From Escherichia phage phiv142-3: a stretch of DNA of 39,293 bases. The position numbers and the translations under genes were made by a program. The notes under the pieces are model-generated. The model made no database searches, was not told the DNA's origin, and worked only from the letters and a program-made list of their open reading frames with translations. Positions 5,110 to 33,082 of this stretch are shown here, piece by piece (positions within the stretch are counted from its first letter, which is position 1; the number at the start of each line of letters is the position of its first letter). The stretch is taken from sequence record MN187550.1. The stretch is one strand, 5' to 3'.

Positions 5110-5152
5110 TTGCAATTACCAAATGGAGTGCTTATATTTACCTTTGCGGTAA
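5110..5152 (+). promoter_or_regulatory. promoter (-35 TTGCAA, 17-bp spacer, -10 TATATT) fused to operator S2 TTACCTTTGCGGTAA (5138-5152)
   Basis: Sigma70-like hexamers read from sequence; the last T of the -10 is the first T of the palindrome. Confidence 0.5.
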
Positions 5153-5242
5153 ATTTACATCGCACTCCTCTTGTGCCATAGTAATCGGGCACTGGCAAAA
5201 TCCAGTGCCGGGATTGGTCTCCCGGATTACTAAGTGGCGCAT

Positions 5243-5265
5243 ACCACGCCAGACGTGGTTTTTTT
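5243..5265 (+). terminator. intrinsic terminator (ACCACG-loop-CGTGGT plus T7 tract) in the antirepressor leader
   Basis: GC-rich hairpin followed by TTTTTTT; preceded by two more hairpins (about 5188-5226); about 160 nt upstream of the antirepressor ATG. Confidence 0.5.
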
Positions 5266-5423
5266 ATGCGTATAGCACAGTCATGCCAGAATTATGGTGG
5301 GCTGAATGGGGGTCCGAAAGGACGCCGGTACCACTTAGGCCGGTAAGACCAACTCCGTTCAGTTCACCACCATCTGATTGGTCTCAGCGGTGGTGATGTA
5401 ATTCGCTAAGTGGAGACGCCATC

Positions 5424-6080
5424 ATGAACGCTCAACTCATCCCCGTATTCAACGGCACTATATCTAACGAAACAGCCCTACTTTGTAATGCCCGCGATCT
5501 GCACGCTTTTTTAGGTGTTAAAAAGGTGTTTGCAGCATGGATTACAAATCGCATATCAGAATACGAATTCATTGAAAATCAAGACTATATTTTGCTTTCC
5601 AATTTGGGAAAGCAAACATCTGGTAGAGGCGGCCACAACCGCAAAGAGTACCACCTCACCCTTGATACAGCCAAAGAGCTGGCGATGGTCGAGCGTAACG
5701 AAAAAGGTCGTCAGGTGCGACGCTACTTCATTGAATGCGAGAAACGTTTAAGACAACAAGAAACAAAAGTGGAGAAGGTCTTGTCAGGCTTCATGCCCGC
5801 CATTATGGAGGCGATCAAGCTGGAAGACAAAAAAGAATACAGCGCCCCACTGAAGCCCGGCTACCGCAGCCTGATTCATTCTCCGTCTGGTGTTCTCGGC
5901 CTGACGGAGAACTCACTGCTGATGAATCTGCTGAACAAGTTACAGGAAGACGGGCACGATGTATCGGGCGCGGCAGCGGAGCTGACCACCATGTTCTGCT
6001 ACATCGTCGGTGTGAGCAAATGCCTGCGTGATATCCAGACCCACGCGGAGTACATCAACGACAAGGCAGGGTTCTTCTGA
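5424..6080 (+). CDS. antirepressor (AntA-like N-terminal domain plus C-terminal domain)
   Basis: 218 aa; N-terminal region (...[10 protein letters not shown]...[17 protein letters not shown]...) resembles phage AntA/AntB antirepressor domains; GGAG RBS about 9 nt upstream. Confidence 0.7.
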
Positions 6081-6124
6081 CGGGCGGTGGCACAGGGATG
6101 TGCCTTTAAATAATTCTGTACAGA

Positions 6125-6167
6125 TTGCAGACTGTGGGTGAATAGCGTACTATTACCTTAAAGGTAA
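6125..6167 (+). promoter_or_regulatory. promoter (-35 TTGCAG, 17 bp, -10 TACTAT) fused to operator S3 TTACCTTAAAGGTAA (6153-6167)
   Basis: Same promoter-operator fusion as at 5110-5152; the operator is immediately followed by AGGAGG and the ATG at 6180. Confidence 0.55.
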
Positions 6168-6179
6168 AGGAGGCGCGAT

Positions 6180-6347
6180 ATGACAGCGTTGAAAAATCGT
6201 ACTCAGCACAATGAACAAGCCAAGCAATGCTGGGATGTCATTGGAAAAGTTATGCTTGGCCGCGCAAGCAAAGAGCGCGACAAGGATATGGTTTACCAGA
6301 CAGGAACATCTTTCAGCGACTTCAAGGCGGCATTTCGCTCCAAATAG
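6180..6347 (+). CDS. hypothetical 55-aa protein (below the ORF-track size cut-off)
   Basis: ATG with strong AAAGGAGG RBS 7 nt upstream; translation MTALKNRTQHNEQAKQCWDVIGKVMLGRASKERDKDMVYQTGTSFSDFKAAFRSK; first gene after the operator-controlled promoter. Confidence 0.5.
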   Translation: MTALKNRTQHNEQAKQCWDVIGKVMLGRASKERDKDMVYQTGTSFSDFKAAFRSK

Positions 6348-6367
6348 AAGCACATCAGGAGTTTTCC

Positions 6368-6808
6368 TTGAAGTTTAACATTAGAATATCTAATAGTTTT
6401 CTACATGGGGAAAGCAACACCCCTTTCGCTGTAGACGGACCTTTCCTTACTGATGATGAAATAAAAATCATACAAAGTTTTTTAGAGGATGTTGCCAATG
6501 GAAGGGCGCTTGTTGGAAAAAACAAGCCCTCGTGGGTTGATGATAACCATGATAAAATTCCCGGCTCAGACAATTATGAGCAAGAGAATTATTGGCATTA
6601 TCATTGTGGGCCAACATGGTATCCAAACACATTTAAGAATTATACCATTAACTTAAATTTCAACCCTGGCGGAAGGCATTCTAATGAATGCATTCATTAT
6701 GCAAAAAATGATAATGAAATTGTCATTGTTGGATTTTCAAGAGAACACATACCTTTCCTTTCATCAGATGGAAACAACAATCCGCTTTTTAATGATGAAG
6801 AAGAATAG
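6368..6808 (+). CDS. hypothetical AT-rich protein (~146 aa), probable TTG start
   Basis: Long open frame in strongly AT-rich DNA (part of ORF 6227..6808); no in-frame ATG after the upstream gene ends; AGGAG 6 nt upstream of the TTG at 6368; followed by an intrinsic terminator. Confidence 0.45.
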   Translation: MKFNIRISNSFLHGESNTPFAVDGPFLTDDEIKIIQSFLEDVANGRALVGKNKPSWVDDNHDKIPGSDNYEQENYWHYHCGPTWYPNTFKNYTINLNFNPGGRHSNECIHYAKNDNEIVIVGFSREHIPFLSSDGNNNPLFNDEEE

Positions 6809-6830
6809 CCCGCGCTGCGGGCTTTTTTGT
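6807..6830 (+). terminator. intrinsic terminator (GCCCGC-loop-GCGGGC plus T6)
   Basis: GC hairpin overlapping the stop codon, followed by TTTTTTGT. Confidence 0.6.
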
Positions 6831-6900
6831 GGACGAAACAAAAGTCAGTGCTACACTCATTGACGCCACATTGAGGTGGCTTATAGATGGAAATTTCACA

Positions 6901-7062
6901 ATGAAAAAAGCATTTGCTGCACTGTTCGTTTTGTTGTCTCTGGTAGCTTCAACTCAGGCCTTTGCCGGTCGTTGTCAGCACGACAGCGACACTGCCGCTG
7001 ACGGCTCCCGCTGCGGTGGGCGTTCTGCGGATTCCCGCCCGGGCGGCGGTGGCATTCGTTAA
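6901..7062 (+). CDS. small secreted protein (signal peptide plus ~30-aa Gly/Arg/Cys-containing mature peptide)
   Basis: Internal ATG of ORF 6829..7062: MKKAFAALFVLLSLVASTQAFA followed by GRCQHDSDTAADGSRCGGRSADSRPGGGGIR; own TTGACG-N17-ATAGAT promoter-like sequence at 6860-6888 with no TTACC-N5-GGTAA site. Confidence 0.45.
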   Translation: MKKAFAALFVLLSLVASTQAFAGRCQHDSDTAADGSRCGGRSADSRPGGGGIR

Positions 7063-7068
7063 AAACAA

Positions 7069-7097
7069 GGCCGCGAAAGCGGCCTGTGACATGTCAC
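7069..7097. terminator. hairpin GGCCGC-GAAA-GCGGCC plus adjacent palindrome GTGACATGTCAC at a convergent gene junction
   Basis: On the minus strand the hairpin is followed by TTGTTTTT, so it can terminate the long virion operon; the 12-bp palindrome (7086-7097) overlaps the stop codon of the membrane-protein gene. Confidence 0.5.
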
Positions 7098-7390
7098 GTC
7101 CCTTTTCTGAATGATAGCCATTCGAAAAATGATGACATTCCACCGCAGACAATAGCAAAGATGATCCCACCAAAGAAGAGAAGGCCAGCCTGCCACCACT
7201 CCCACCGCCATACATCCACAGCGCCAACCATACCAACAATCGCTCCAACAAATGGAATATAGCTCACGATGAAAGCAATGGGGGCTGCAATTATCCAGTG
7301 CAATCCCCACCATGATTCAAGCCCAGCCATAATTGCTGCCAACTGAAAAAGACCAACGACGATATAAACAATGAATCCTATAGCTTGCAT
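7094..7390 (-). CDS. small multi-TM membrane protein at the end of the virion operon
   Basis: 98 aa from the ATG at 7390 (AGGTGA RBS 4 nt upstream); the track ORF extends to a TTG at 7450; about 4 hydrophobic helices rich in Gly/Ala/Ile/Trp. Confidence 0.5.
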   Translation of the reverse strand: MQAIGFIVYIVVGLFQLAAIMAGLESWWGLHWIIAAPIAFIVSYIPFVGAIVGMVGAVDVWRWEWWQAGLLFFGGIIFAIVCGGMSSFFEWLSFRKGT

Positions 7391-7586
7391 GTAGTCACCT
7401 AATTTACCCAGTAAAAATAAGAGGCCTCCCCTCAATAAGGCTTGCAACAAGAACTACTCCCTGCACAACAAAGATGAACCAGCAAATAGCTTGAGTCTGA
7501 GGGTTAAGAAAATATTTGTAGCGGTCAATAAATAACAATACACCAGAAATTATCACACTCAAAATAATTAAAAACACAACACTTCC

Positions 7587-10061
7587 TTATTGCGGAGTGA
7601 CATCCTGTGGTCGCCACCAGTATGTCTGGTTAAACTCTTTCTTCGAACGTTGCTCCATTTTACGCAAATAACCTGGTGAAAAATACTCCTGCATCTGGTT
7701 AAAGATCATGTGATCGAGAGCCGCCTTTAAGTACCAGAGATTCGCACCTGGCATCAGACCTTTCCCCAGCTTAACCAGATCACCACCAGTCTGCTCATTC
7801 TTCCCTTCCACAGCATTTAACGGTATGCCCTGAGCAATCTTCACTACGTCATCAACCAGACCAGCTACCGGGCCAAGCATCGACGCCAGTGCGCCGCTTC
7901 CGTACCTAGTGTGATCTGACAATAAAAAGTCACCGTAAAGGCCAAGACCACCACCTTTCAGTAGAGCACCAAGCCAAAATTTAGCAGCATCTTCTCCTGT
8001 CATCTCGCGAGGATTACGACCAGACGCAAGGTCGTTAAGTTGCTGCGACAAAGCGCCAAGAATGGTCGTACTGGCAATAAACGTCGCAATATATGCCGCA
8101 CGCCCACCAGCAGATGGAATACCCATAGCGCGTGACCAGTGACGCATAACCACCGAGATAGGGAACGATTTAAACAGGAAAACACTTCTCGTTAATTCAC
8201 CTTTCCATGTTCCACGCTGAATACCAGAACCGGTTATCAGTTGCTCACGTGCTCCCGGTGTAATAACAGCCATATCAACTTCTTCAGTTACGGCACCGAG
8301 CAGTTTACGCATTGCCTCAAATTTCACGCGTTCAGGCTCACCAAGATGTTTAACTGCTGAATCAGGGATACGCATAATGCTTTCCGGTGTCAGCATCGTA
8401 TTATTGCCGTTCCCCCAGTCCTCCTGTTGAGCCAGCTTCCATACGCTCCAGTCTGTGTCAGTAATCCCTTTGCTTTTCAGGATACGAAAATCAGAATCAT
8501 CGAGGCTACGAAGGTCTGGTGTCCGTGACACTACTTCTCCCAGGCTTCCCATCATGGTTACGCCATAGGCGCGCTTGTGCGCATCTGACCATGCTGTAAG
8601 CCCACTGGCACGCATTACCGCCGTTGCAGCCCAACGAGACACAGACGGCCCCATATTATCCATCGCCCAGCGGTTAACGCTGCCAAGTAGAGATTCCATC
8701 GCTAGACCAGCGCGGCGCGCCCGCGCAAGTTCTGTACGGTTCGTTGGGTCCATAGCTTCAAGCTGGTTGCGGAATAACTGGTTCATTGGAAGGTTGGTCA
8801 CCTTCGCAGACAGATACATGGTTCCAAGATCAGAGAACGATGACAGCAACGCGGATCCGAGTCTGCTGGCAACCAGCCAGTTGCGGATATTGTCAGACCA
8901 TCGCGCGATGTGCGGATTCGCTACAGGCTGTGTCTTTCCGGAAATAAAGTTGTACAGATTCTCTGTGTTGTTCGCCAGCCGCTCGACTTTACCGGTTTTA
9001 CTCGGGTTAGCTGTTGCCGTTTCTGCCTTCACCTGATCAAGAAGAGAGCGGAAAACATGATCGGGGTTTGGGCCATATGTTTCCACCAGTGCAATATCTT
9101 TACTGATACCTTCCAGGTGACCGACCATGATTTCCCATAGAGAGCGATCGCCATAAAGTTGTTGATATTGCAGATAGGAATCTGCATCTTTGAAATGTAT
9201 CTGTCGTGATGCATTACCACGGTTAGCACGTGCGCCGGAAATTCGCATTCCGGTATCAGTAAGCTTATTCAGCCCACCAGTAGCGATCGTGTTATAAGCC
9301 TCTCCAAGAAATGAAGACAACTCGGCATCGTTCATCAGTTGTCCATCGGCTCGGATATAATATTTGCGATCCAGCTTACCTATAACATCGCTAACCCACT
9401 TATCCTTTGATACCGCCCCAACCTTTTCCATAGAATGATGTTGAGGGATCCCCCAGTTTTCGAGATAGCCAATGTCCCCACCAGCATCATTAAACCGGCG
9501 GCGCAGTAGCTCTGTCACTTCTCTCCACGCCTTAGCACCTTTTCTTGCTTTAGCATTGCCAGTATTTTGCCCTCGCATTTCATATACCAGGTCACGCACG
9601 CCAGCTTCATCTTCAAACAGGCCAAAAAAGCGAGGATCAACTGCTTCAAATGCCTCCTGCAATTGACTCAATGCATAATCACGAGTGGCTTTTGTTCTGG
9701 ATTCAACAGAGAGGAAATTCGATTTACCGTCTGCATTAAAAGCAATAGTACGGTTAAGAGCGCCAAGTTTCCCATCAGCCCCTTGATAGCTATTGATAAA
9801 TTTATCCAATCTCTGACGTGCGGCTATAGTGAGGGCCACACGACGTTTCTTTAATGCCGCTTCTCGCTGTAATTCTTCAGATGCCAATTGTGCTGCACGA
9901 TATAGCCGCTCTGATTCGGAAAGTTGTCTCCACGACATCGGGTCATCACGAGCAATGGAGCGCATATTTCGATAAATGCGGTCTTCAATGTTCTGTATTT
10001 CTCGCGCCGTTAACGTGCGCTGCGCCGCCTGCTGGACCGCTTGTATACATTCCTGTCTCAT
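7587..10061 (-). CDS. large internal virion / ejection protein (T7 gp16-like position, distal part)
   Basis: 824 aa; position and size within the podovirus-like structural operon; Gly-rich hydrophobic C-terminal region. Confidence 0.6.
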   Translation of the reverse strand: MRQECIQAVQQAAQRTLTAREIQNIEDRIYRNMRSIARDDPMSWRQLSESERLYRAAQLASEELQREAALKKRRVALTIAARQRLDKFINSYQGADGKLGALNRTIAFNADGKSNFLSVESRTKATRDYALSQLQEAFEAVDPRFFGLFEDEAGVRDLVYEMRGQNTGNAKARKGAKAWREVTELLRRRFNDAGGDIGYLENWGIPQHHSMEKVGAVSKDKWVSDVIGKLDRKYYIRADGQLMNDAELSSFLGEAYNTIATGGLNKLTDTGMRISGARANRGNASRQIHFKDADSYLQYQQLYGDRSLWEIMVGHLEGISKDIALVETYGPNPDHVFRSLLDQVKAETATANPSKTGKVERLANNTENLYNFISGKTQPVANPHIARWSDNIRNWLVASRLGSALLSSFSDLGTMYLSAKVTNLPMNQLFRNQLEAMDPTNRTELARARRAGLAMESLLGSVNRWAMDNMGPSVSRWAATAVMRASGLTAWSDAHKRAYGVTMMGSLGEVVSRTPDLRSLDDSDFRILKSKGITDTDWSVWKLAQQEDWGNGNNTMLTPESIMRIPDSAVKHLGEPERVKFEAMRKLLGAVTEEVDMAVITPGAREQLITGSGIQRGTWKGELTRSVFLFKSFPISVVMRHWSRAMGIPSAGGRAAYIATFIASTTILGALSQQLNDLASGRNPREMTGEDAAKFWLGALLKGGGLGLYGDFLLSDHTRYGSGALASMLGPVAGLVDDVVKIAQGIPLNAVEGKNEQTGGDLVKLGKGLMPGANLWYLKAALDHMIFNQMQEYFSPGYLRKMEQRSKKEFNQTYWWRPQDVTPQ

Positions 10062-10066
10062 TTAAT

Positions 10067-11869
10067 TTAACCTCTCAAGAAACACGCCACAGCGACATCA
10101 AACAGGCTGGAATCCTGTATTGCCTGCTCACTTTCCCTGTTCGCTTCATCCAGTACTTCACGCGCGCTGCGCGATTGTGGATTACCATCATCATCCAGCA
10201 CGGTGATTATCATGTCAGGTGATTCAAGCAGCGAGTCTTCAGCTATGCGCAGATCAATATCTCCTGCCTGATCCGCCATCATTTTTTGTTCTGCCTGTTG
10301 CAATATTTTATCAGGCTCAAAAGGAGCTACTTCGTCTGGCGTCCTGACCTCTGCTGTTTTATAGAATGAAACAGCCTGAGCATTAAGTTCACTTTCTGCC
10401 TGCTGTCTCCGAGCCAGTTCTGCTCGAGCTTCAAAAAACTGACCTCCAGGCTCGTGCGGTGCCAACGCGTTACGGGAAAATTCCAGGCGTTCTTGTGCCT
10501 GCCGGATTCGTTGATCAATATCGCGAAGTCTGGCCTGTTTATATGATCGAGCACGAGACAAAGCTTTACCGCTACCGGTTGGCTCTTCTGCAAGAATTTG
10601 TGCACGCTGTTCAGTGAGATTTTCAATAATTCGTTGGCTATTAGCGATTTCAGACTGGTAAACCTGTCTATCTCCACGCGGCAAAAGCTGCGCGGCCTGT
10701 TCTTCAAGCAACCGATTTTCTATAGCGCGCGCCGTTACTCCATCATCTACAGATGACAGAGCCTCATTAACTGCCTGAGACAGCAGACTCTTGCGCCCAG
10801 GAATTTCACTGAAAGATGCAGACTCAACAATGCTGGCAACGTCTACAGGTCTCCCCTGGCTAACATCAGACATAGCTTTTCGCAGAGCCTGAATGTGAGA
10901 ATTGCGCGAAAGCACGTTGATCGGCACGCCGGGCGCAATATCAATTTCAGCATGATGAGCGGCATTCGCCGCCAGTGCAGCATCGATATCAACTGGTGAA
11001 AAATTTGGTGCGTTTGTAGACTCGCCGCGAGAGTTAATAAATCTGCCGACACCACCAAACGCCACCCCAAGAACAGCATCAATAGCAATTGCCTGTCGAT
11101 CCAACACATCATACTGGTTAGCCATTTCGCTATAGCCACCATCACGAAGTGTTTTTGCAGTAAGCCCACGCTGTGCCATACCGAACGCAATATTTGTACC
11201 TGCTGCATAGGCAATATCTGGCGTTGCACGTACTGCTGTTGCTGCGGCGCGTCGCACTGAACTCTCACCCGTCCGCGCAAGCTGAGCCGCCACACCTTCC
11301 ACCAGCGCACCACCAGCACGTAACCCGAGGCTCATAGGGATCAGCGTTCCGGCACCAGCAGTAATGCCCTGCACTAATCCCGCTTCCTGCGCCGTCCTGA
11401 AATCAACACCCTGTGATGTAAGCCGTTCAAACTCAGAAAAACCCTGTAGAGAAGTTACCGCCGCAGCACCTCCGACCGGACCACCGAGCGTTGTACCGAC
11501 AACAGCCTGCCCGCCCATATCGAACAACCCATAAAGGACCTGCCCGGCGGTTCCGGTTGTCGCGGCATCAGGCGTCAGCCGCTTAACCTGCTGCTCTGCT
11601 AGTTTTCTCTGCTCAGCAATGTATGAAACTGAAGTGTCATTGATCGAGGTGTTTTCGTTAACAAACTGAGCAATCGGGGATACGATTTTATCCATCCCTG
11701 CCCATAGCAACTGATCTGGCTTTGCCACCAGCCCGGAGTACAAACCAGACAATGCCGCTCCTACAGCATTGTCGAAAAAACCAACATCGCTGTTAAAGCC
11801 AGCTGGATTTGATGCTGCTTCGTCAAGCTGCTGATTCTGGTTTACTGGATTAAGGCCAAAGTAACTCAT
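10067..11869 (-). CDS. internal virion / ejection protein (T7 gp16-like position, proximal part)
   Basis: 600 aa; separated from the next ORF by 5 nt and a frame change, so the pair may be a split gp16-like gene. Confidence 0.55.
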   Translation of the reverse strand: MSYFGLNPVNQNQQLDEAASNPAGFNSDVGFFDNAVGAALSGLYSGLVAKPDQLLWAGMDKIVSPIAQFVNENTSINDTSVSYIAEQRKLAEQQVKRLTPDAATTGTAGQVLYGLFDMGGQAVVGTTLGGPVGGAAAVTSLQGFSEFERLTSQGVDFRTAQEAGLVQGITAGAGTLIPMSLGLRAGGALVEGVAAQLARTGESSVRRAAATAVRATPDIAYAAGTNIAFGMAQRGLTAKTLRDGGYSEMANQYDVLDRQAIAIDAVLGVAFGGVGRFINSRGESTNAPNFSPVDIDAALAANAAHHAEIDIAPGVPINVLSRNSHIQALRKAMSDVSQGRPVDVASIVESASFSEIPGRKSLLSQAVNEALSSVDDGVTARAIENRLLEEQAAQLLPRGDRQVYQSEIANSQRIIENLTEQRAQILAEEPTGSGKALSRARSYKQARLRDIDQRIRQAQERLEFSRNALAPHEPGGQFFEARAELARRQQAESELNAQAVSFYKTAEVRTPDEVAPFEPDKILQQAEQKMMADQAGDIDLRIAEDSLLESPDMIITVLDDDGNPQSRSAREVLDEANRESEQAIQDSSLFDVAVACFLRG

Positions 11870-23565: not shown

Positions 23566-23655
23566 ATCAATGACTCCGTACGCAATTAAATTATTACCAA
23601 TTTAACCACATATGATTTATTTATCGTAGATAGTTGACATTTAACGCACGAATTA

Positions 23656-23670
23656 TTACCTTTCAGGTAA
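23656..23670. promoter_or_regulatory. operator-like palindrome TTACCTTTCAGGTAA (site S4, identical to S1)
   Basis: Perfect copy of the S1 15-mer in the non-coding region between portal and tRNA; a TTGACA hexamer lies 17 bp upstream. Confidence 0.55.
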
Positions 23671-23992: not shown

Positions 23993-24069
23993 GTGGCATT
24001 AGCTCAGTTGGACAGAGCAACCGCCTTCTAAGCGGTTGGTCGCAGGTTCGAATCCTGCATGCCACGCCA
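23993..24069 (+). tRNA. tRNA-Arg (anticodon UCU)
   Basis: Hand-folded cloverleaf: 7-bp acceptor stem GTGGCAT/ATGCCAC, D-arm GCTC...GAGC, anticodon stem ACCGC/GCGGT with loop CTTCTAA, T-arm GCAGG-TTCGAATC-CTGC, discriminator G and encoded CCA. Confidence 0.85.
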
Positions 24070-24385: not shown

Positions 24386-25861
24386 TTAAGCATAGGGATC
24401 GTAATCTGTAATGGCCTTGCCTTGCTGGTTCTGCTGCCCGGGAATTCGCAGGCGCTTTGACACCGGGAAAGCAAACGTCAGCAGTAGCGCATCGCCTTTA
24501 CCCGGCGAACGCCCAAGTCGCTCTTTGATATCTTCCTTCTGTTCGATAACGATTTTACCGTCCACGCGAACTTTGTACTCTGCCGTCGACAGGTCGTCCG
24601 CTGTTTCCTGGTCATCCAGCATCCCGCCCAGCCTCAGCCATGTCTTGCATGAGTTGAACATCTCCCCACGCTTGTTGAGCATCTGCGGGTCAGTAGACGC
24701 GCCACCGAACGGAACAAGTTGCCATGTACGACCCCAGCCGTCACCGATTGACTTCAGACCAGTTCCGTAACCGAAGTCGATGAACACTGCGTCAGCCTGG
24801 TACTGGTCTTCAAAGTCAGCGATACGCTTCGCCATTATCAGATCGTCAGTGGTCTTGTTGCCAGTCCACAGCACCTTACTGTGCAGCCCCTGCCGCAGGT
24901 ATATCACCGCGTCATCAACGCCTGAATATGCCGGGTCAACACCGATTATCACCGGAGCATGTGCCACCTGCGCAGCGGTTACCACCCGTTTCATTGCCTC
25001 ATCAGTAAGACCGGTAGGGATAAACTGCAATTCAGATGCATCAGGGAATATGCCGCGCACACGGATTTTAACGAAGTCGCTGTCTTCCCCGTAGTCATCA
25101 ACCCATTTCTGCAACTGCTGTTTGTTAGTACCTTCCACCGTCCGGCTGTCAATCTGCGCAGTTTTCCAGCGGTGTTTGTATTTGCGGAAACATTCGCGAA
25201 AACGCCCGGTATTACGTGTAGGGTTTCCGAACGCCACCCAGATAATCTCAGTGTCTTCGTCCGTAAGCGCACCCTCAGCAACTTCCCACACCAGATCCGC
25301 AATGTTCGACGCTTCATCGAATACCACGATGATGCGTTTGCGCTCGTTGTGTAGTCCGGCGAATGCCTCAGTGTTGTGCTCAGACCAGGGGATTGCGTCA
25401 GCTCGCCACCGCTTGTCGTGCCCAGGATCATTGCTGTACATCGCAGTAGCGGTACAGGTAAACCAGTCTTTCGTGATAGCAAGGTTCGACCACTTGATAA
25501 TTTCCGGCCAGGTCTTCGTTCGTAGCTGGTTGTCGGTGTTGGCGGTCACCACGACCTTACAATCCTCGCAAGTGGACATGCCCCAGTTGATCAGCATTGA
25601 GATGAATGCGGATTTACCAATACCGTGACCAGAAGCGCGTGCCAGCATAAGCGGCTGATAGCGCGTCTCTGGATTCTGCAGGTGATCACGTATCTCTCGG
25701 AACGCATCAGCCTGCCACTGACGTGGGCCGGTAGCATGTGCCAGTTCAGTCCCCTCTTCCCCCCACGGGAACGCATAGAGGGCATAGCCAAGCGGATCGT
25801 GAGTGAACCCTGCAATATCCTCGATCAACTGCTCTTCAGGAGATAACGCTGTATCTGTCAC
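24386..25861 (-). CDS. terminase large subunit
   Basis: 491 aa with a Walker A-like ...ASGHGIGKSAF... ATPase motif and nuclease-like acidic C-terminal region; downstream of the small-subunit gene with 4-bp overlap. Confidence 0.85.
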   Translation of the reverse strand: MTDTALSPEEQLIEDIAGFTHDPLGYALYAFPWGEEGTELAHATGPRQWQADAFREIRDHLQNPETRYQPLMLARASGHGIGKSAFISMLINWGMSTCEDCKVVVTANTDNQLRTKTWPEIIKWSNLAITKDWFTCTATAMYSNDPGHDKRWRADAIPWSEHNTEAFAGLHNERKRIIVVFDEASNIADLVWEVAEGALTDEDTEIIWVAFGNPTRNTGRFRECFRKYKHRWKTAQIDSRTVEGTNKQQLQKWVDDYGEDSDFVKIRVRGIFPDASELQFIPTGLTDEAMKRVVTAAQVAHAPVIIGVDPAYSGVDDAVIYLRQGLHSKVLWTGNKTTDDLIMAKRIADFEDQYQADAVFIDFGYGTGLKSIGDGWGRTWQLVPFGGASTDPQMLNKRGEMFNSCKTWLRLGGMLDDQETADDLSTAEYKVRVDGKIVIEQKEDIKERLGRSPGKGDALLLTFAFPVSKRLRIPGQQNQQGKAITDYDPYA

Positions 25862-26454
25862 TGATTACCATCCTGACGTTCTTTGAGTCGCTTCCTGGCT
25901 GCCGCTATGCGATCAGCAATTGTCACATTCACATTAACATCCAGGCGTTCTTTGAATGCATTGACGTCGACGTGCTTACCAATCAGTTCGAGGTTCTTCA
26001 CCTTGTCAGGCCATTTAATTTTTTTGAGAATTGTCTCTATCGAATCCTCGTTCATGTTCATGATGGTCGATGACAGATCAAAGCCACTAAGCGTAGTGCG
26101 CCAGATTTTCGGCCACTCGCGGATTGGCTTAAGGCTCCCATCGTCATTGAGGATATCAATCACGTCCATCTGGTCGATCTCCACCAGGCGCATGAGAACG
26201 TAATCGGCACTGACGCGCATTCGTTTGTTGCGCTCCTCCATCAACTCGGCAATCCGTTTTTGAATGCGTTCATCGCGCATCATGACACTGGCTTTAACTG
26301 CCGCTGTATTTGGGGAGAATCCTGCGTTAATCGCTGCCTGAGTCTGGTTTTCAGGCGTTTTGATGTATGACTGGCAATAAGCCTCCTGCATTGCGGTTAG
26401 TGGCTTAAATTGCGTTGATTTGCGTTTATAGGTTTTAGGTTCAGCAGGCATCAT
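25858..26454 (-). CDS. terminase small subunit
   Basis: ORF 25858..26532; start moved to an internal ATG (MMPAEPK...) preceded by GGTGG, because the N-terminal extension would cover operator site S11 and a terminator. Confidence 0.6.
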   Translation of the reverse strand: MMPAEPKTYKRKSTQFKPLTAMQEAYCQSYIKTPENQTQAAINAGFSPNTAAVKASVMMRDERIQKRIAELMEERNKRMRVSADYVLMRLVEIDQMDVIDILNDDGSLKPIREWPKIWRTTLSGFDLSSTIMNMNEDSIETILKKIKWPDKVKNLELIGKHVDVNAFKERLDVNVNVTIADRIAAARKRLKERQDGNQ

Positions 26455-26471
26455 AACCACCATGGTAATTG

Positions 26472-26486
26472 TTACCGTTGTGGTAA
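26472..26486. promoter_or_regulatory. operator-like palindrome TTACCGTTGTGGTAA (site S11) about 20 bp upstream of the terminase small-subunit start
   Basis: Perfect TTACC/GGTAA arms; between an intrinsic terminator and the terS RBS. Confidence 0.5.
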
Positions 26487-26496
26487 TAGCACCATG

Positions 26497-26523
26497 CAAA
26501 ATAAAGCCGCCATAGTTGGCGGC
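26497..26523 (-). terminator. intrinsic terminator in the late-operon leader (GCCGCC-loop-GGCGGC plus TTTATTTT on the minus strand)
   Basis: Hairpin and T tract read on the minus strand between the zinc-ribbon gene and terS. Confidence 0.55.
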
Positions 26524-26564
26524 AGTATTCAAAACCCATCAAATTCATCATGCATAATCTACTC

Positions 26565-26920: not shown

Positions 26921-26935
26921 TCCACGCCAGATTGA

Positions 26936-27025
26936 TTAATGACTCCCAGGCAATATAAACCCGGATACCAGCAGCCAGGCCGAAACCAATCACCATGGCA
27001 TAAAGCAGAGCGTTGCACTTGTTCA
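26936..27025 (-). CDS. possible 29-aa hydrophobic peptide
   Basis: MNKCNALLYAMVIGFGLAAGIRVYIAWESL; ATG follows the upstream stop with GGAGGTGA 4 nt upstream; not in the ORF track because of size. Confidence 0.25.
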
Positions 27026-27655: not shown

Positions 27656-27657
27656 GG

Positions 27658-27849: not shown

Positions 27850-27850
27850 C

Positions 27851-28465
27851 TCACTCTCCTTTGATGCGAATGCCTGCGGCGCGTGGCACATTAACTTCCA
27901 CGATGCGCACAGTTGGTTTGTACATCTCAATCGCAGTCAGCCAGTCAGCGCCAGTCATGCGCTTTTCTGCATCGCCATTAGTCCACTTAACCGGTACACC
28001 AATAGCCTTCATCGCGATTTCTATTTCCCCGGCAATGGCGCTTTTTCCGCAACCAGTAAAACCAGATACAACGACCAGAACTTCACCTTTGGCTGGTTTT
28101 ATTTCCCGCTCCTCCAGTTCTGCTATGCGCTTACTTCCATCCGAGATAACACCTTCGTAATACTCACGCTGCTCGTTGAGTTTTGATTTTGCTTCCTCAA
28201 GTTCAACGCGCAGCTTCCCTACCGTTAGTGCAATATCCTCGTTCTCCTGGTCGCGGCGTTTTATGTATTGCTGGTTTCTTTCCCGTTCATCCAGCAGCGC
28301 CAGCACAATGTGTGGCGTTATCAAGGACTCAAATTCGGCAACAGCTTGCTCACCTCGCTTGTAATTCTTAATCCCACCTAAATCTTTCGCGTTCTGTGCC
28401 GCCTCACGCAGCGCCAGTGTGTCGATGTCGATGTCGATGTCGATGTCGATGTCGATGTTGCTCAT
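27851..28465 (-). CDS. Ead/Ea22-like early protein with N-terminal (Asp-Ile)6 repeat
   Basis: 204 aa starting MSNIDIDIDIDIDTL...; coiled-coil-like middle region; GGAGG RBS; ATGA overlap with the upstream gene. Confidence 0.55.
   Translation of the reverse strand: MSNIDIDIDIDIDIDTLALREAAQNAKDLGGIKNYKRGEQAVAEFESLITPHIVLALLDERERNQQYIKRRDQENEDIALTVGKLRVELEEAKSKLNEQREYYEGVISDGSKRIAELEEREIKPAKGEVLVVVSGFTGCGKSAIAGEIEIAMKAIGVPVKWTNGDAEKRMTGADWLTAIEMYKPTVRIVEVNVPRAAGIRIKGE
28421..28456. repeat. perfect hexanucleotide tandem repeat (GTCGAT)6
   Basis: Six exact tandem copies read directly; encodes the (DI)n tract at codons 4-15 of the Ead-like gene. Confidence 0.9.
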
Positions 28466-28695
28466 TGTGCCTCCTCGATTTCGTCCCATTCCACCCAGGC
28501 ATTCTCTCCATCAGCATCGATTTCACCTTTGTGACCGCATTTGGAACAAACGGCCTCATCACCCGCCCACAAAGAATCTTTGGTTACCGACCATCCTGTT
28601 ACCCTGGCTTTGCCGTGCTGGCACCTAGGGCAATCATCAAGCCATTCGACTTCGACCGTTGAAGGACCAAATCCATGTTCAGTTCGGATGCTCAT
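28462..28695 (-). CDS. small zinc-ribbon protein
   Basis: 77 aa from internal ATG (MSIRTEHG...); two CxxC pairs (CPRCQHG...CSKCGHKG). Confidence 0.5.
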   Translation of the reverse strand: MSIRTEHGFGPSTVEVEWLDDCPRCQHGKARVTGWSVTKDSLWAGDEAVCSKCGHKGEIDADGENAWVEWDEIEEAQ

Positions 28696-29492
28696 GACTG
28701 AACTCCTTTGCGAATCTGTTCCGCCCATTCTTCAAGGGATTTCTCCGCATATTCACCAGACAGGCCATCAATCGGATGCAGTTCATTAGCCAACTCTTCT
28801 TTCGCTGACAAAATCATGCGTGTAACGTCGAAAACTTCACGCAAAGACTTATTGATAAATCCGTGATTGAACGCAGCAGCAAGACGGCTTGCGGTATAGT
28901 TAATCCCCTCGTTGCGTGCTTCCGCACGTACTTCAGCAAGGAAGGCATCGGTGGCTGGGGTTTCGACATTAGGTCGAAGCTCATAATCACAAACTCTTTC
29001 AATCCATGGTGATACTCTGTCGCATTTCCTCTTCTTGCGTTCACCGACCTTGGTTGCCTGCTGAATAATTACCCCCCAGCAAATGCTTTCGACCTCTTCG
29101 CTCCATCCATCGCAAGCATCGCCTCTATAGTCGTCAATTGCAGCCTCAGCAGCAGCGATAGCCTCCTCAGCAGTTTTGTGACACTCGAAACTAAATTCAG
29201 AGCCATATGAGAAATACATAGCCCCGGCCTTCAGTCTTGCATTCTCCGCCGCCAACGCCGAAAACTTCTCGTGTGCCAACTTAACAGCCGAATCAGCCTG
29301 CTTAATTGACTCAGTCGCTCTCTGGTGGTCTTCGGCCAGCGCATTAGCACGCACCAGTTGCACTTCCAGTTGCGTTGCCAAATCGCTGATCAGCTTTGCC
29401 ACACTGCGCATATCAACGGCACCACATTCTGCTTTCAGTTCCGAAGCCATCTCATGCCCGGCGGCAACTAACCCTTTGATATTACTTTCCAT
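28692..29492 (-). CDS. hypothetical early protein (Ea22-like coiled-coil N-terminus)
   Basis: 266 aa; helical Ala/Glu-rich N-terminal region. Confidence 0.55.
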   Translation of the reverse strand: MESNIKGLVAAGHEMASELKAECGAVDMRSVAKLISDLATQLEVQLVRANALAEDHQRATESIKQADSAVKLAHEKFSALAAENARLKAGAMYFSYGSEFSFECHKTAEEAIAAAEAAIDDYRGDACDGWSEEVESICWGVIIQQATKVGERKKRKCDRVSPWIERVCDYELRPNVETPATDAFLAEVRAEARNEGINYTASRLAAAFNHGFINKSLREVFDVTRMILSAKEELANELHPIDGLSGEYAEKSLEEWAEQIRKGVQS

Positions 29493-29553
29493 CTTTACCC
29501 TCGCTTATCCACATAACTTATTGATTACATTGATAACTAAAAAGATCGTCGAT

Positions 29554-29898
29554 TCAGAAATCTTCGATGTTCCAGCCACCACCTGCTTTCTTTGGTTTAA
29601 CCGTTACCCCGATGATTCGGAACGGATACTGATCTGCGGCGACTTTGGTTTTCACCCTGGCGTCGTCGGTCCAGAAACCTTTCACTTCGTGCAGTTCCAT
29701 CTCGCCGGTGGCGAGCATCACAGCGAAATCTGGCGTATAGAACGTGTTATTAGCTAACCGCAGCTTGATACCCTCGAATCGATACCAGGCGATTTCCCCT
29801 GCACGTTTACGCTGCTCAAGGTGCTGGCAATACGCAGATTCTGTTTTGTTCATCTGGCCTGTTTTGAGTCGACCAAGAGCCTGCATCTGTTTTCTCAT
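29554..29898 (-). CDS. small PD-(D/E)xK-type nuclease-like protein
   Basis: 114 aa with ...YTPDFAV...ELHEVKG... matching the D...ExK nuclease signature; first gene after an operator-flanked promoter. Confidence 0.5.
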   Translation of the reverse strand: MRKQMQALGRLKTGQMNKTESAYCQHLEQRKRAGEIAWYRFEGIKLRLANNTFYTPDFAVMLATGEMELHEVKGFWTDDARVKTKVAADQYPFRIIGVTVKPKKAGGGWNIEDF

Positions 29899-29901
29899 GA
29901 T

Positions 29902-29978
29902 TTACCTCTGAGGTAATTAAAAACCACATAAGACACGAAATCAATAGAGTTTAGAATATTTTATTACCTGACGGGTAA
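29902..29978 (-). promoter_or_regulatory. minus-strand promoter (-35 TTGATT, 17 bp, -10 TTTAAT) bracketed by operators S5b TTACCTCTGAGGTAA (29902-29916) and S5 TTACCTGACGGGTAA (29964-29978)
   Basis: Hexamers read on the minus strand; the two palindromes are 62 bp centre-to-centre; S5b overlaps the -10/+1 and the RBS of the nuclease gene. Confidence 0.55.
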
Positions 29979-30015
29979 TTATTTGAGCGTAAAAAAATGC
30001 GCTATCGCGCTGGTA

Positions 30016-30816
30016 TTACTTGATAAATCCTGCCGCCTTTCCCCGCCTGTATTCCTCCATCAGCCACTGCGCCGGTGTTATTCCCCCAAGGGTGGCGGCG
30101 TTAGGCATGCACCCGAAACTTCGCCCTGGTGGATGGTAAACGTCTCTCCCTGTGTCCGGAGGTGTACTCATGGGTTCTGGCTTTGCCTGTATGCTGATCA
30201 CCGGATCGGGTATCTGCTGTCCGGAAGCCACCTTTTTCGCCCAATCATCGAGCAGCCTGCGCGCGTGTTTCTCAACCTCAATCTCGCTAAGCTGGCGCTG
30301 ATACATTGCACGGCGGGTATCACATACGACCCAGTACATAACCGGATGTCGCCACGGGAATCTTTCGGGACCACCAGGATATAAACTTTTTTCCTTGCTG
30401 TACCGGTGAAACTCCGCCATCACATCGTCAATGGTGACGCCAAGAACCATCTTGCTGTCTTTACACCACTTGATAAATTGCCCTGGCGACGGCCAGAACG
30501 GAGATTCACTGGCGCGGGCGTGGCGCATACCAGCAGAAACCTGTTCACGGGTTCGGATCCCCCCTTCGGCAAACGCAGCAATCCACTGCTGTTTTGCAGC
30601 AACTTCCTGCTCTGGCGTCTTCAGGTTGGTTGCCACTGCCGCCGGAAACAGTTGTTTCAGCTGTTTAAAAAGGGCATCAACAAGCCTCTCTGCTGACATG
30701 TTCACCACATTGTCATTGTTGACGTATTGATGCTCATAACCTGACATGCGAGAAAGGGCTTCTCCGTCACGGTTTTGTATCGCGGTAAAAACGTTGTTCA
30801 CAAGAAATCCTCCCAT
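30016..30816 (-). CDS. replication protein P-like (helicase loader)
   Basis: 266 aa; segment ...EQVSAGMRHARASESPFWPSPGQFIKWCKD... closely parallels lambda P ...EQVNAGMRVARRQNRPFLPSPGQFVAWCRE... (from memory). Confidence 0.75.
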   Translation of the reverse strand: MGGFLVNNVFTAIQNRDGEALSRMSGYEHQYVNNDNVVNMSAERLVDALFKQLKQLFPAAVATNLKTPEQEVAAKQQWIAAFAEGGIRTREQVSAGMRHARASESPFWPSPGQFIKWCKDSKMVLGVTIDDVMAEFHRYSKEKSLYPGGPERFPWRHPVMYWVVCDTRRAMYQRQLSEIEVEKHARRLLDDWAKKVASGQQIPDPVISIQAKPEPMSTPPDTGRDVYHPPGRSFGCMPNAATLGGITPAQWLMEEYRRGKAAGFIK

Positions 30817-31613
30817 GCTTCAGGGCTGTTCCAGTGCGGAACGTTGTTATCAGGTAATGTTGATTGCTTCTGTCTGCTAATCTGCAGCCGCCTTGCCAGC
30901 TTCTGCTCCCACTGTGCCTGATGGTATGCCTTACCCTCAGCCATCCAGTAAATTCTGAACTCTGCAAGTTCCTGTGCCGTTGGCAGACTGTCCAGGTAGA
31001 TCCCCTGCAATGAGCTTTTCCGAAGAAAGTCATCTGATGGCTGCCATTGTTCATGCATGACAAATTTGCCTAATTGCCCTGGCCCACCAGGAGGAACAAA
31101 GTTATTCATCACGGCGTTGTTTGCGCCTGGGTCATGATGCACAGAATCCCCGTTTTTTGTCCTGCTCTCCCTCTCTTGGTTAAATGACTGGTTATATGAC
31201 TGGTTCTGGATCCCGTTTTTGGGATCATTCAACATCCCGTTTTTGGGATCATTCAACATCCCGTTTTTGGGTATATTCCCGTTTTCGGTAACATTACCGT
31301 TTTCGGGTTCATTGCCCCCCTCTCGGTTGCCTTTAATGTTCCCGTTTTTGGTTATATTAAGAGAGAAAACCCGCACTCTTTTTGTCGCTCCCTTTCTCTC
31401 CCCGGTATCTGAAATAAGCCCCATTTTCATGAGCGATATAAGTCCGGCCTGCACGGTTTTTTTATTCAGGCAAGTGTCTTTAACGAGGCGTTCTATGCTG
31501 GGGTAGCAGAGGTTATATTCATCGGCTCTGTCAGCCATCGAGAGCAGTATGAGCTTTAATGACGAGCTACCTGGATCTGTCTCCCAGGCCCAATCTGTTG
31601 CATGTCTGCTCAT
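30798..31613 (-). CDS. replication initiator O-like protein
   Basis: 271 aa; N-terminal HTH-like region, central Asn/Gly-rich repeat (ENGNVTENGNIPKNGMLNDPKNGMLNDPKNG) encoded by DNA iterons, C-terminal domain preceding the P-like gene. Confidence 0.65.
   Translation of the reverse strand: MSRHATDWAWETDPGSSSLKLILLSMADRADEYNLCYPSIERLVKDTCLNKKTVQAGLISLMKMGLISDTGERKGATKRVRVFSLNITKNGNIKGNREGGNEPENGNVTENGNIPKNGMLNDPKNGMLNDPKNGIQNQSYNQSFNQERESRTKNGDSVHHDPGANNAVMNNFVPPGGPGQLGKFVMHEQWQPSDDFLRKSSLQGIYLDSLPTAQELAEFRIYWMAEGKAYHQAQWEQKLARRLQISRQKQSTLPDNNVPHWNSPEAWEDFL
31210..31358. repeat. replication-origin iterons inside the O-like gene
   Basis: Two perfect tandem 24-mers ATCCCGTTTTTGGGATCATTCAAC (31210-31257) plus 3-4 degenerate copies of CCCGTTTT(T/C)GG; each core is itself an inverted repeat (TCCC...GGGA). 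Confidence 0.65.
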
Positions 31614-31628
31614 GATTAATCTCCGCTA

Positions 31629-31829
31629 TCAGCTTGAATGTTGTGGGGAGGAATTAATCATGATCTGCTTAATCTCTGCCCTGATACGACGGTTTGATTC
31701 CATGGTGCACTCAACACAGTGTCCGTTGTAAACCCAGCGTTCACTGTCATGTCCGTGCTTACATGTTTTCCCGGTGTAGTAGCGTTTAAGTCCGCGCTTT
31801 GCGGCATCAATACGTGTAATGATTTCCAT
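31629..31829 (-). CDS. small Cys/His-containing protein at the cII-like position
   Basis: 66 aa from internal ATG (MEIITRID...); CxH...HCxxC pattern; follows a tR1-like terminator. Confidence 0.4.
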   Translation of the reverse strand: MEIITRIDAAKRGLKRYYTGKTCKHGHDSERWVYNGHCVECTMESNRRIRAEIKQIMINSSPQHSS

Positions 31830-31908
31830 GGTAAGCCCTGTTATTAGTATTGGGATTACGGTTATTTTGTGCTGACACAAAAAAAGATCAACCATATTTG
31901 GTTTTTTA

Positions 31909-31957
31909 TTACCTTTGAGGTACGAATAGATATGAAAAGACCGCCGGATGGCGGTCT
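31909..31957 (-). terminator. tR1-like intrinsic terminator after the cro-like gene, plus imperfect operator S6 (TTACCTTTGAGGTAC, 31909-31923)
   Basis: Hairpin AGACCGCC-loop-GGCGGTCT (31938-31957) followed on the minus strand by TTTTC; operator-like site 15 bp further downstream. Confidence 0.5.
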
Positions 31958-31978
31958 ACAGAGGGTTGTGGCTGGATA

Positions 31979-32209
31979 TCATGAGTAGAAGAAGTATGCC
32001 AGTTCTGCTTTTGAGCGCAGCCATTGTCTTGATTTACAGGCTTTAAAAAGCCCATCCATCAATACCTTACCTGGCATTTTGCGCTTACCTGTTAAGTGAG
32101 TCTGGATATAGTGACTCGTCGTTCCGGCTTCCTGTGCGAAGGCTTCACGCTCATCCGGAGTAAGTGCAAGCCAGTGCTTTTTGAAATCGAAATGTCCGTT
32201 ATCGCTCAT
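31979..32209 (-). CDS. Cro-like HTH regulator
   Basis: 76 aa with HTH-like segment ...REAFAQEAGTTSHYIQTHLTGKR...; divergent from the repressor gene across the operator cluster. Confidence 0.55.
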   Translation of the reverse strand: MSDNGHFDFKKHWLALTPDEREAFAQEAGTTSHYIQTHLTGKRKMPGKVLMDGLFKACKSRQWLRSKAELAYFFYS

Positions 32210-32234
32210 AGCTATTGCCTGATATTTATTTCAG

Positions 32235-32308
32235 ATAATAAATATTCACCTATAAGGTAACAAAAATCAAGGATAGTTACCCATGAGGTGCATTTACCTG
32301 TTGGGTAA
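32235..32308. promoter_or_regulatory. divergent switch region with three operator palindromes and the cro-side promoter
   Basis: O1 TCACCTATAAGGTAA (32246-32260), O2 TTACCCATGAGGTGC (32277-32291), O3 TTACCTGTTGGGTAA (32294-32308). Minus-strand promoter -35 TTGTTA (32263-32258) and -10 TATTAT (32240-32235) with O1 inside the spacer. Confidence 0.6.
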
Positions 32309-32363
32309 TATTGCTTTAAATTGAATCATCTTCTGATTCAGATATGAGGCGATTTTCCAGAAA

Positions 32364-32948
32364 ATGAAAAGTATCCAGGACGTCCGCAGGCAAAATCTCA
32401 ACGACTTGATCGACCGTGAATTCAATGGTGTTCAGACGCGGATGGCTGAAAAACTTGGAACTCAGGCAAATCTGGTAAACCGCTGGGCTCTTGGCAAGAA
32501 GGTTATCGGCGACCAGGTTGCGCGAAAAATTGAAGCTGCCGCCAATAAACCCCGTAACTGGCTTGATATCGATCGCTCGCTTTCTCAGGAAGGTTTTCAG
32601 CCTGTCGGCCCGAGTGATATAGGTCAGCTGGCTGCTCACAACCTGGAACGCTGGATGAGCGAAAGCCGCGACCTTTCAACGCAGGGAAAACTACACCGCG
32701 CATCCGGCGTCGCCCAGGTGACAATCAGCCGCCTGTTAAACAATGAGGTCAGCGTTTCCATTTCCACCCTGGAGAATGTTGCATCCGCATTCGGGCGTCA
32801 TGGCTATGAATTACTGATTCACCCGCACGACCCTGCGACTATCAACTATGACCGCTCGCGCTACGCATTGTTACCCGAAACCGAGAAAGCAAAGATCGAA
32901 AGTTACATTGAATTTGTCATCAACCAGAACGAAAAAAACAAACAATAA
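32364..32948 (+). CDS. immunity repressor, tandem-HTH type without a recognisable autopeptidase domain
   Basis: 194 aa; two XRE-like HTH segments (...QTRMAEKLGTQANLVNRWALGKK... and ...LHRASGVAQVTISRLLNNEV...); no Ala-Gly/Ser...Lys S24-like motifs seen; divergent from cro-like gene. Confidence 0.65.
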   Translation: MKSIQDVRRQNLNDLIDREFNGVQTRMAEKLGTQANLVNRWALGKKVIGDQVARKIEAAANKPRNWLDIDRSLSQEGFQPVGPSDIGQLAAHNLERWMSESRDLSTQGKLHRASGVAQVTISRLLNNEVSVSISTLENVASAFGRHGYELLIHPHDPATINYDRSRYALLPETEKAKIESYIEFVINQNEKNKQ

Positions 32949-32968
32949 AATCATATTTTTCAGTAAGT

Positions 32969-32993
32969 AAGCCGCCTTATGGCGGCTTTTTTA
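32969..32993 (+). terminator. intrinsic terminator after the repressor gene (AAGCCGCC-TTAT-GGCGGCTT plus T tract)
   Basis: Hairpin and T tract about 20 nt after the stop codon. Confidence 0.65.
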
Positions 32994-33005
32994 TTGCCTG
33001 TTTGA

Positions 33006-33082
33006 TTACCTAACGGGTAATTTTTTTAACTCATATCTATTGACACCAAACCAGATACGCATAATTATTACCTCAACGGTAA
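33006..33082 (+). promoter_or_regulatory. promoter (-35 TTGACA 33040-33045, -10 AATTAT) bracketed by operators S8 TTACCTAACGGGTAA (33006-33020) and S9 TTACCTCAACGGTAA (33068-33082)
   Basis: Consensus -35 hexamer; S9 fused to the -10; S8 and S9 are 62 bp centre-to-centre, the same spacing as S5/S5b. Confidence 0.6.

Follow-up and report, generated by a model that had tools for sequence, protein, structure and literature searches.

In the 39,293-nt sequence of Escherichia phage phiv142-3 (MN187550.1; this whole stretch is called the window here), a set of promoters has the -10 hexamer fused to a palindromic operator, with the final T of the hexamer serving also as the opening T of the palindrome, and two of these promoters have a second operator exactly 62 bp upstream. 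Both features are conserved among diverged relatives. The explanation that we favour, with moderate confidence, is that the palindromes are operators of the phage repressor Rep, that Rep bound at the fused operator would block the promoter, and that at the promoters with a -62 site a single Rep tetramer would bind both operators cooperatively. The operator family and its repressor are already known, which the preliminary description of this DNA had not recognised, and the arrangement is a conserved but fairly classical promoter shut-off, not a new kind of system.

The palindrome was read from four stretches of the window as TTACC-N5-GGTAA, with the extended form ATTACC-N5-GGTAAT. Ten exact copies are present in the 39.3 kb, where dinucleotide-preserving shuffles gave an expectation of 0.02 (a 500-fold excess); with up to one mismatch allowed there are 15 copies, compared with 0.70 expected from the shuffles. 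A version with an N4 centre had 0 matches in the window, and N5 is thus correct. The operators are located between annotated genes. That the palindrome is the operator of the phage repressor, as had been assumed, is borne out by the GenBank record of epsilon15 (AY150271.2), in which the same motif is annotated as a repressor-binding site: seven features are labelled 'protein_bind: repressor, lysogeny' and all read ATTACC-N5-GGTAAT. Operators of the window lie at the loci annotated in epsilon15, namely before the terminase small subunit gene (terS), before the portal module, in the gap between the antirepressor gene (ant) and the tailspike gene, downstream of rep (a pair) and after the replication genes (a pair). 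The epsilon15 record leaves four exact copies unannotated (24704, 33341, 33358 and 35969), and the copy at 35969 belongs to the second 62-bp pair, in which it is the operator fused to the promoter. A full-text literature search with the operator sequence returned no relevant match.

When every copy was aligned in both orientations in a common register, the resulting table contained all four of the fusions listed in the preliminary description, each with a TTGnnn -35 hexamer, a 17-bp spacer and a -10-like hexamer that shares its last T with the palindrome. At 5110-5152 (plus strand), directly after the ant stop codon, TTGCAA-17-TATATT runs into TACCTTTGCGGTAA (operator 5138-5152), an arrangement conserved in phiV10 and Tyrion. 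At 6125-6167 (plus strand), TTGCAG-17-TACTAT runs into TACCTTAAAGGTAA (operator 6153-6167), which is followed by AGGAGG and an ATG at 6180; this promoter is placed to drive two genes of unknown function, up to a terminator at 6807-6823. On the minus strand, TTGATT-17-TTTAAT (29944-29916) leads into the primary operator at 29916-29902 and is placed to drive the DUF1064/Holliday-junction-resolvase-like gene (29554-29898, minus, assigned by homology) and the genes downstream of it; read on this strand, the distal half of the operator (GAGGTAA) doubles as a ribosome-binding site 3 nt before the ATG. The promoter of the recombination operon is TTGACA-17-AATTAT at 33040-33068 (plus strand; PL-like, 10/12 consensus matches), with its primary operator at 33068-33082 (TTACCTCAACGGTAA) predicted to span -7 to +8 and followed by an open reading frame of 53 residues at 33102-33263. 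A fifth fusion in the same register had been overlooked: at 4800-4758 (minus strand), TTGTTT-17-GCAAAT is followed by TACCTGAAAGGTAA, faces the tailspike gene (2524-4653, minus, assigned by homology) and is conserved in phiV10 and PAS61. A TTG thus occupies the -35 slot at 5 of the 20 oriented exact sites (P ~2e-5 at a TTG frequency of 0.018), and in a scan across 55 offsets the highest count, 5, fell at -28. A count of 4 at offset -56 came from unrelated coding sequences and was discarded as no signal.

These promoters had been described as a modular cassette reused around the genome. One design rule, the register, does recur, but the five cassettes are only 20-40% identical at unconstrained positions and share no sequence beyond the constrained bases, which rules out that they are copies of one duplicated piece of DNA. 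The control element is compact, with the -35 hexamer, the -10 hexamer, the operator and the ribosome-binding site within ~45 bp.

The second palindromes at the nuclease and rightward-operon promoters do lie exactly 62 bp upstream, measured centre to centre (29971/29909 and 33013/33075), and the distance is, as stated earlier, about six helical turns (5.90 turns at 10.5 bp per turn). Both paired promoters lie directly downstream of co-directional, terminated operons. In the first case this is rep (32364-32948, plus, 194 residues, assigned by homology), and the upstream or auxiliary operator at 33006-33020 (TTACCTAACGGGTAA), centred near -62, lies behind the rep terminator hairpin (32969-32988 and a T-run); in the second case it is the pair of DnaT-like and P-like replication genes (30016-31613, minus, assigned by homology), where the auxiliary operator at 29964-29978 lies just behind the terminator of the P-like gene, a hairpin with a T-run. 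With the -10 hexamer set at -12 to -7, the primary operator occupies -7 to +8 and is centred at +1, the -35 hexamer occupies -35 to -30, and the upstream operator occupies -69 to -55, 19 bp upstream of the -35 hexamer. The -35 hexamer is therefore no more than 1.5 bp from the midpoint of the operator centres (midpoint 33044 and hexamer 33040-33045 for the 33006/33068 pair; midpoint 29940 and hexamer 29939-29944 for the 29902/29964 pair). The 47 bp of DNA between the operators have a GC content of 0.23-0.28, compared with 0.49 for the window, and inspection of this DNA by eye for a binding site of integration host factor found no exact match to WATCAANNNNTTR. At the rep-proximal upstream operator of epsilon15 and PAT1, the other strand has TTGTGT-17-AAAAAT before the operator in the fused register (epsilon15 32617, plus; PAT1 16125, plus), which may constitute a promoter antisense to rep; at this position the window reads TGGTGT instead of TTGTGT.

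Conservation was followed in 17 relatives, comprising eight complete phage genomes and nine prophage loci from Serratia, Raoultella, Pluralibacter, E. coli and metagenomes, in which Rep is 54-74% identical to that of the window; the prophage loci were found by a search for homologous proteins and then through the contigs encoding them. The half-sites are the same in all 17. In every phage genome operator pairs occur at two loci, one just downstream of the rep terminator and the other after the replication genes. Among the 28 paired promoters of these genomes and prophages, all keep the fused register and 27 keep the 62-bp centre-to-centre spacing, the remaining one having 63 bp. The register of -35 hexamer, -10 hexamer and operator, which the preliminary description had based on the window, thus holds among relatives while the spacer sequences diverge: seven different TTGAnn hexamers, all kept in register, were found at the paired promoters, and spacer identity falls to 18%. 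Each module consists, in order, of a terminator hairpin with its T-run, 10-24 bp, the upstream operator, a 19-bp T-/A-rich gap ending in CTA, TTGAnn, a 17-bp spacer, nnnAT|TACC-N5-GGTAA, and a ribosome-binding site with the ATG. The flanks vary in length, with 17, 18, 19 or 89 bp from the primary operator to the ATG and 10-24 bp from the T-run to the upstream operator. Because 62 bp is held at 27 of 28 promoters while adjacent segments change length, we argue that the two operators are functionally coupled.

A second retrieval, of viral contigs via Rep, gave 80 loci in which Rep was 100% identical throughout, and these were useful only for counting spacing variants. Over 99 loci the symmetrised consensus of the operator is A-TTACC-YnWnR-GGTAA-T, and neighbouring exact copies lie 62 bp from each other in 176 cases, compared with 4 cases at 61 or 63 bp. 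The 176 pairs represent 111 distinct sequences, 110 of which have the TTG in register. The two 63-bp variants at the rep-proximal promoter have one extra T in the T-run adjoining the upstream operator. In four prophages the -62 operator is absent and a second operator lies instead 18 bp upstream, inside the spacer; this replacement indicates that two sites are kept. Two Serratia prophages have an operator pair of 75 bp downstream of rep instead of one of 62 bp; in the Serratia prophages rep is followed by a gene similar to that of DNA polymerase III theta (PF06440).

The constant distance might have been inherited and not selected, if the module spread by recombination among close prophages and has gathered too few insertions and deletions to show a constraint; the operators would then bind Rep independently of one another. 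Most of the loci retrieved via Rep are indeed nearly identical, and the 19-bp gap between the upstream operator and the -35 hexamer still averages 65-79% identity. The segments that flank the module at these loci do change in length, however, the spacer retains its length at identities as low as 18%, two unrelated promoters in each genome have the same 62 bp, and the rare 61- and 63-bp variants show that insertions and deletions arise yet stay rare. We regard inheritance as an improbable account of the spacing. An unbiased scan of species genomes for operator pairs 47-77 bp apart gave at least 120 loci, mostly in unrelated organisms, and was not decisive. Among the matches listed, pairs of TTACC-N5-GGTAA 55-58 bp apart (peak 57) recur without the promoter register, and several of the listed loci with this spacing are Lachnospiraceae, Clostridiales or Eubacterium contigs; this family of pairs is an element unrelated to the phage operators.

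Residues 1-190 of Rep, the protein that would act at these sites, align with the Rep of SPC32H (5D50 chain A, residues 2-197; E 4e-42) and residues 89-190 with the C-terminal fragment crystallised as the 5D4Z tetramer (E 4e-20), so that the homology covers the DNA-binding domain, the middle dimerisation domain and the C-terminal domain for tetramerisation and Ant binding. The repressor note in the epsilon15 GenBank record cites PDB 5D50, the SPC32H Rep-Ant complex. According to PMC9638917, it is the tetramer of SPC32H Rep that binds DNA, binding by the dimer being weak. PMC9986798 describes the Rep C-terminal domain as a p53-like 'TetDloop' fold, which in the pLS20 repressor Rco mediates DNA looping, and states that the repression mechanism of Rep 'has not been extensively characterized'. 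From the homology to a tetrameric repressor, together with the statements of these citing papers, Rep of the window is likely to have two DNA-binding units, and so it would fit the bivalent (tetrameric) protein that cooperative binding or a small loop requires. The ZX5 paper only speculates about operators.

The antirepressor gene is in the corresponding place. Ant matches the Ant of SPC32H (PDB 5D50 chain E, E 1.9e-46), and ant (4849-5106, plus, assigned by homology, with its ATG at 4849) is encoded divergently from the tailspike gene, in the same position as in SPC32H (SPC32H_020). Together with its LexA box the unit extends over 4810-5106 (plus strand); the box TACTGTATAAATATACAGTT is at 4810-4829, and its core CTGTATAAATATACAG at 4812-4827 has 0 mismatches and lies 21 nt before the ant ATG.

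In the mechanism that we propose, Rep on the primary operator would cover about -7 to +8 and so block formation of the open complex. At the paired promoters one Rep tetramer would bind both operators and bend the 47-bp AT-rich segment that contains the -35 hexamer and an UP-like tract, and this bending would repress the two strong early promoters more tightly. On induction, following the model of SPC32H, cleavage of LexA would allow synthesis of Ant and Ant would disassemble the Rep tetramer; as it is the tetramer that Ant splits, all operators would be released at once upon the SOS response. For the cooperative binding or small loop over the -35 hexamer proposed earlier, the conserved spacing and the homology to a tetrameric repressor thus provide support, and the mechanism itself is what we infer from them. 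A more specific form of this proposal, which we offer tentatively, as somewhat less likely than not, is that a single p53-like Rep tetramer clamps the operators at +1 and -62 and places the -35/UP region in a micro-loop, with 47 bp between the sites. If true, the micro-loop would be one of the tightest natural repression loops and a fixed, family-wide feature of epsilon15-like prophages across the Enterobacterales; it would also account in physical terms for the unusual 'trans' mode in which SPC32H Rep is reported to bind DNA, and would explain why the antirepressor acts by splitting the tetramer.

The position of the upstream operators suggested a different role, in which the upstream site is mainly a barrier to read-through: Rep bound there would be a roadblock that keeps lysogenic transcription of rep from reaching the recombination and excision genes. 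Both -62 operators, as well as those at 26472 and 31909, directly follow terminator hairpins, and a -62 site is lacking at the promoters (4758 and 6153) that are not preceded by a terminated operon. At the rep-proximal promoter the transcript of the operator, with its U-run, could even be a weak second terminator, as the upstream operator and U7 fold into a hairpin of -6.3 kcal/mol in tandem with the rep terminator. At the second promoter, in contrast, the operator is not followed by a U-run and its hairpin has only -4.6 kcal/mol, so that a terminator function for the upstream operator is plausible only at the rep-proximal promoter. A roadblock, moreover, needs no fixed distance from the promoter, whereas the 19 bp that separate the upstream operator from the -35 hexamer are kept in 27 of 28 cases and the stretch between terminator and operator ranges over 10-24 bp, and the primary operator would already suffice as a roadblock. 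For these reasons we think it unlikely that a barrier to read-through is the main function.

The fixed distance from the -35 hexamer could instead reflect a direct action on RNA polymerase, with Rep at the -62 site excluding the alpha C-terminal domains without any loop, or stimulating the promoter when only that site is filled, which would make it a dose-dependent switch. Class I activator sites lie near -62, for example that of CRP at -61.5 in lac. It is in keeping with this that the upstream operator at -69 to -55 abuts a T-/A-rich, UP-like tract at -54 to -44, and that the conserved quantity is the exact distance from the -35 hexamer. The half-sites of both operators are perfect, however, and so give no sign that affinity is graded between the two; four relatives have their second operator 18 bp upstream, in the spacer, where it can only repress; and no activation by this repressor family is reported in the literature covered. 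We give this possibility little credence.

Several observations weigh against the cooperative binding of one Rep tetramer at operators fused to promoters. These genomes also contain operator pairs that are out of helical phase (48 bp, or 4.57 turns, as well as 17-18 and 75-76 bp), and pairs of 30 bp, so that Rep does not require a fixed phase in general. Of the 111 'distinct' 62-bp pairs, many come from close relatives and hence are not independent, as is the case for many of the 99 loci, which makes the 17 diverged genomes the fairer sample. The -10 hexamers differ in quality: of the five, TTTAAT and GCAAAT do not have the important A at their second position, and a simple consensus scan accepts only those at 33040 (10/12) and 5110 (9/12) and not those at 6125, 29944 and 4800, although promoters that fail the scan are still supported by the conservation of TTGAnn in register. 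Finally, the promoter claimed at 5110 has a rival. The fused register is present there, but a second candidate at 5154-5182 (plus strand; TTTACA-17-CATAGT with a TG extension, predicted start ~5189) abuts the 5138-5152 operator, is equally conserved and is predicted to start exactly at the 5' end of an isrK-family RNA (5189). Both candidates are conserved in Tyrion. As the operator adjoins two conserved candidate promoters, it may control them in tandem.

The isrK-family RNA is the first part of a module that lies directly downstream of ant and the 5138 operator. It is a predicted Hfq-binding small RNA at 5189-5265 (plus strand, including its terminator), identified by a full-length match of 67.7 bits (gathering score 50), and it is followed in a row by a C4-type antisense RNA at 5290-5374 (plus; 61.2 bits, gathering score 45) and an AntA/AntB antirepressor gene at 5424-6080 (plus; AntA domain, E 4e-26). 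The phage thus appears to have a second antirepressor module beside the LexA-controlled Ant, one that resembles P1 immI and Gifsy-1 isrK-anrP. The isrK/C4 module is also found in phiV10 and Tyrion, and is absent from epsilon15.

Other promoters in these genomes that Rep probably controls use different operator layouts, which the preliminary description had not noted: pairs of 18 bp, 48 bp and 17+30 bp, and an operator placed within the spacer. A pair 48 bp apart at 32246-32308, in the gap that separates rep from the divergent cro-like gene (31979-32209, minus, assigned by homology), consists of TCACCTATAAGGTAA and TTACCTGTTGGGTAA. The first of these is a conserved weakened operator (TCACC) inside the promoter of the cro-like gene (TTGTTA-17-TATTAT, 32263-32235), and the second overlaps the likely rep promoter. 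An adjacent pair 18 bp apart (26454-26486) follows a terminator hairpin and stands directly before the likely start of the terminase small subunit. A single operator at 23656-23670 lies between the portal module and a tRNA-Arg gene; TTGACA-17-TACCTT (23630-23670, plus strand) would put a -10 hexamer in its left half, and this candidate promoter points at tRNA-Arg(TCT) (23993-24069) and an open reading frame similar to Sf6 gene 66, opposite to the structural genes. Two further conserved operators have one mismatch, one at 31909-31923 (GGTAC), immediately behind the terminator of the cro-like gene, and one at 39129-39143 (ATACC), upstream of the integrase gene. The one-mismatch operators at 32246-32260, 31909-31923 and 39129-39143 each have the same mismatch at the corresponding loci of diverged prophages, which suggests that they are deliberately weakened sites.

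By DNA identity the phage is an epsilon15/phiV10-like temperate podophage of the genus Uetakevirus: over most of its length the window is 96-98% identical to Escherichia phages phiV10, vB_EcoP_PAS61 and HEMP4, and it is ~76-81% identical to Salmonella phage epsilon15, SPN1S/SPC32H and Enterobacter phage Tyrion (all Uetakevirus). Its terminase genes (24386-26454, minus) were assigned by homology. The annotations of phiV10 and PAS61 start terS 26 codons upstream of the start used in epsilon15, SPC32H and Tyrion (window 26454-26532), which places the two operators within the annotated coding sequence; the start at window 26454 (ATG, 198 residues) appears more likely. At the start of rep, which has no obvious Shine-Dalgarno sequence, a 7-codon upstream open reading frame, ATGAGGCGATTTTCCAGAAAATGA (32344-32367, plus), ends in ATGA and overlaps the start codon, so that translational coupling is possible. 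Within the DnaT-like gene (30798-31613), iteron-like tandem repeats at 31177-31313 (12 bp x2.4; 24 bp x2.6, with 100% identity; 18 bp x3.1) may be a replication origin. The integrase gene (37837-39086, minus) is split into two overlapping open reading frames in different frames, which correspond to residues 1-121 and 123-416 of the phiV10 integrase and are each 98% identical to it; either the sequence contains an error here or the gene has a frameshift, which would make this a defective prophage.

The general picture of phage repressor action is unchanged by these findings. Neither the exact -10 fusion nor the invariant 62-bp pair was found described in the literature covered, which did not extend to Kropinski 2007, Kim and Ryu 2013 and Kim et al. 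2016. The pair of palindromes that flank the -35 hexamer at a distance of 62 bp provides a concrete, testable prediction for SPC32H Rep, a protein that is structurally solved and mechanistically under-described. The likely Rep regulon of phiV10-type phages comprises at least seven promoters, including those of the tailspike, terminase and recombination units and of the second antirepressor unit; as these phages serve as O157:H7 reporter and typing phages, a map of the regulon helps their engineering or silencing.

Several known systems share parts of this arrangement. In phage P1 the operators of the C1 repressor are scattered over many units, among them immI (Op51-c4-icd-ant), and C1 binds an asymmetric 17-bp site as a monomer. 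The window resembles P1 in its dispersed operators and in having an operator-controlled promoter that would drive a C4-type RNA and then an antirepressor gene; it differs in that C1 is unrelated to Rep, the module has an isrK-family RNA in addition, and the AntA-type gene is not P1 ant. The Lac repressor, whose tetramer has two DNA-binding units, acts from a primary operator at the transcription start and from an auxiliary one a whole number of turns upstream; it binds the two cooperatively, and the short loop so formed raises repression. The paired promoters resemble this auxiliary-operator repression at lac O1/O3 (and the gal, deo and ara loops), although here looping is what we infer. The protein folds are unrelated, the spacing is 92 bp in lac and 62 bp here, which would be among the shortest natural loops, and the operator is fused to the -10 hexamer instead of being centred at +11. 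As to lambda CI, Hochschild and Ptashne are said to have found in 1986 that dimers on engineered operators 5-6 turns apart bind cooperatively and bend the intervening DNA. The 62-bp spacing matches this six-turn regime; the natural lambda sites, however, are adjacent (~24 bp) or 2.4 kb apart, whereas the six-turn spacing here is natural and conserved, and Rep is inactivated by an antirepressor and not by RecA-stimulated cleavage. PMC9986798 names SPC32H Rep as an analogue of pLS20 Rco, with which it shares an N-terminal helix-turn-helix and a p53-like tetramerisation domain, and Rco likewise has a dedicated antirepressor and two looped operator regions; in contrast, pLS20 is a Gram-positive conjugative plasmid, its operator regions are multi-site, and several tetramers or octamers are involved.

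The closest system is the Rep/Ant system of epsilon15-like phages (Uetakevirus). The operator is the same, and the annotated epsilon15 sites include both members of the rep-adjacent 62-bp pair; full-length Rep, Ant, the LexA box at ant, the gene order and the two 62-bp pairs at the same loci are also shared. There are also differences: the E. coli/Enterobacter lineage, which includes the window, has the 48-bp pair between rep and the cro-like gene where the Salmonella lineage has 17+30 bp, the Salmonella lineage has a third operator 76 bp downstream that the lineage of the window lacks, and the latter has two extra operator-controlled units (5110 and 6125), the isrK/C4/AntA module of the 5110 unit having no counterpart in epsilon15. 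Judged by every comparison that could be made at the level of sequence, the window belongs to the epsilon15/SPC32H Rep-Ant system.

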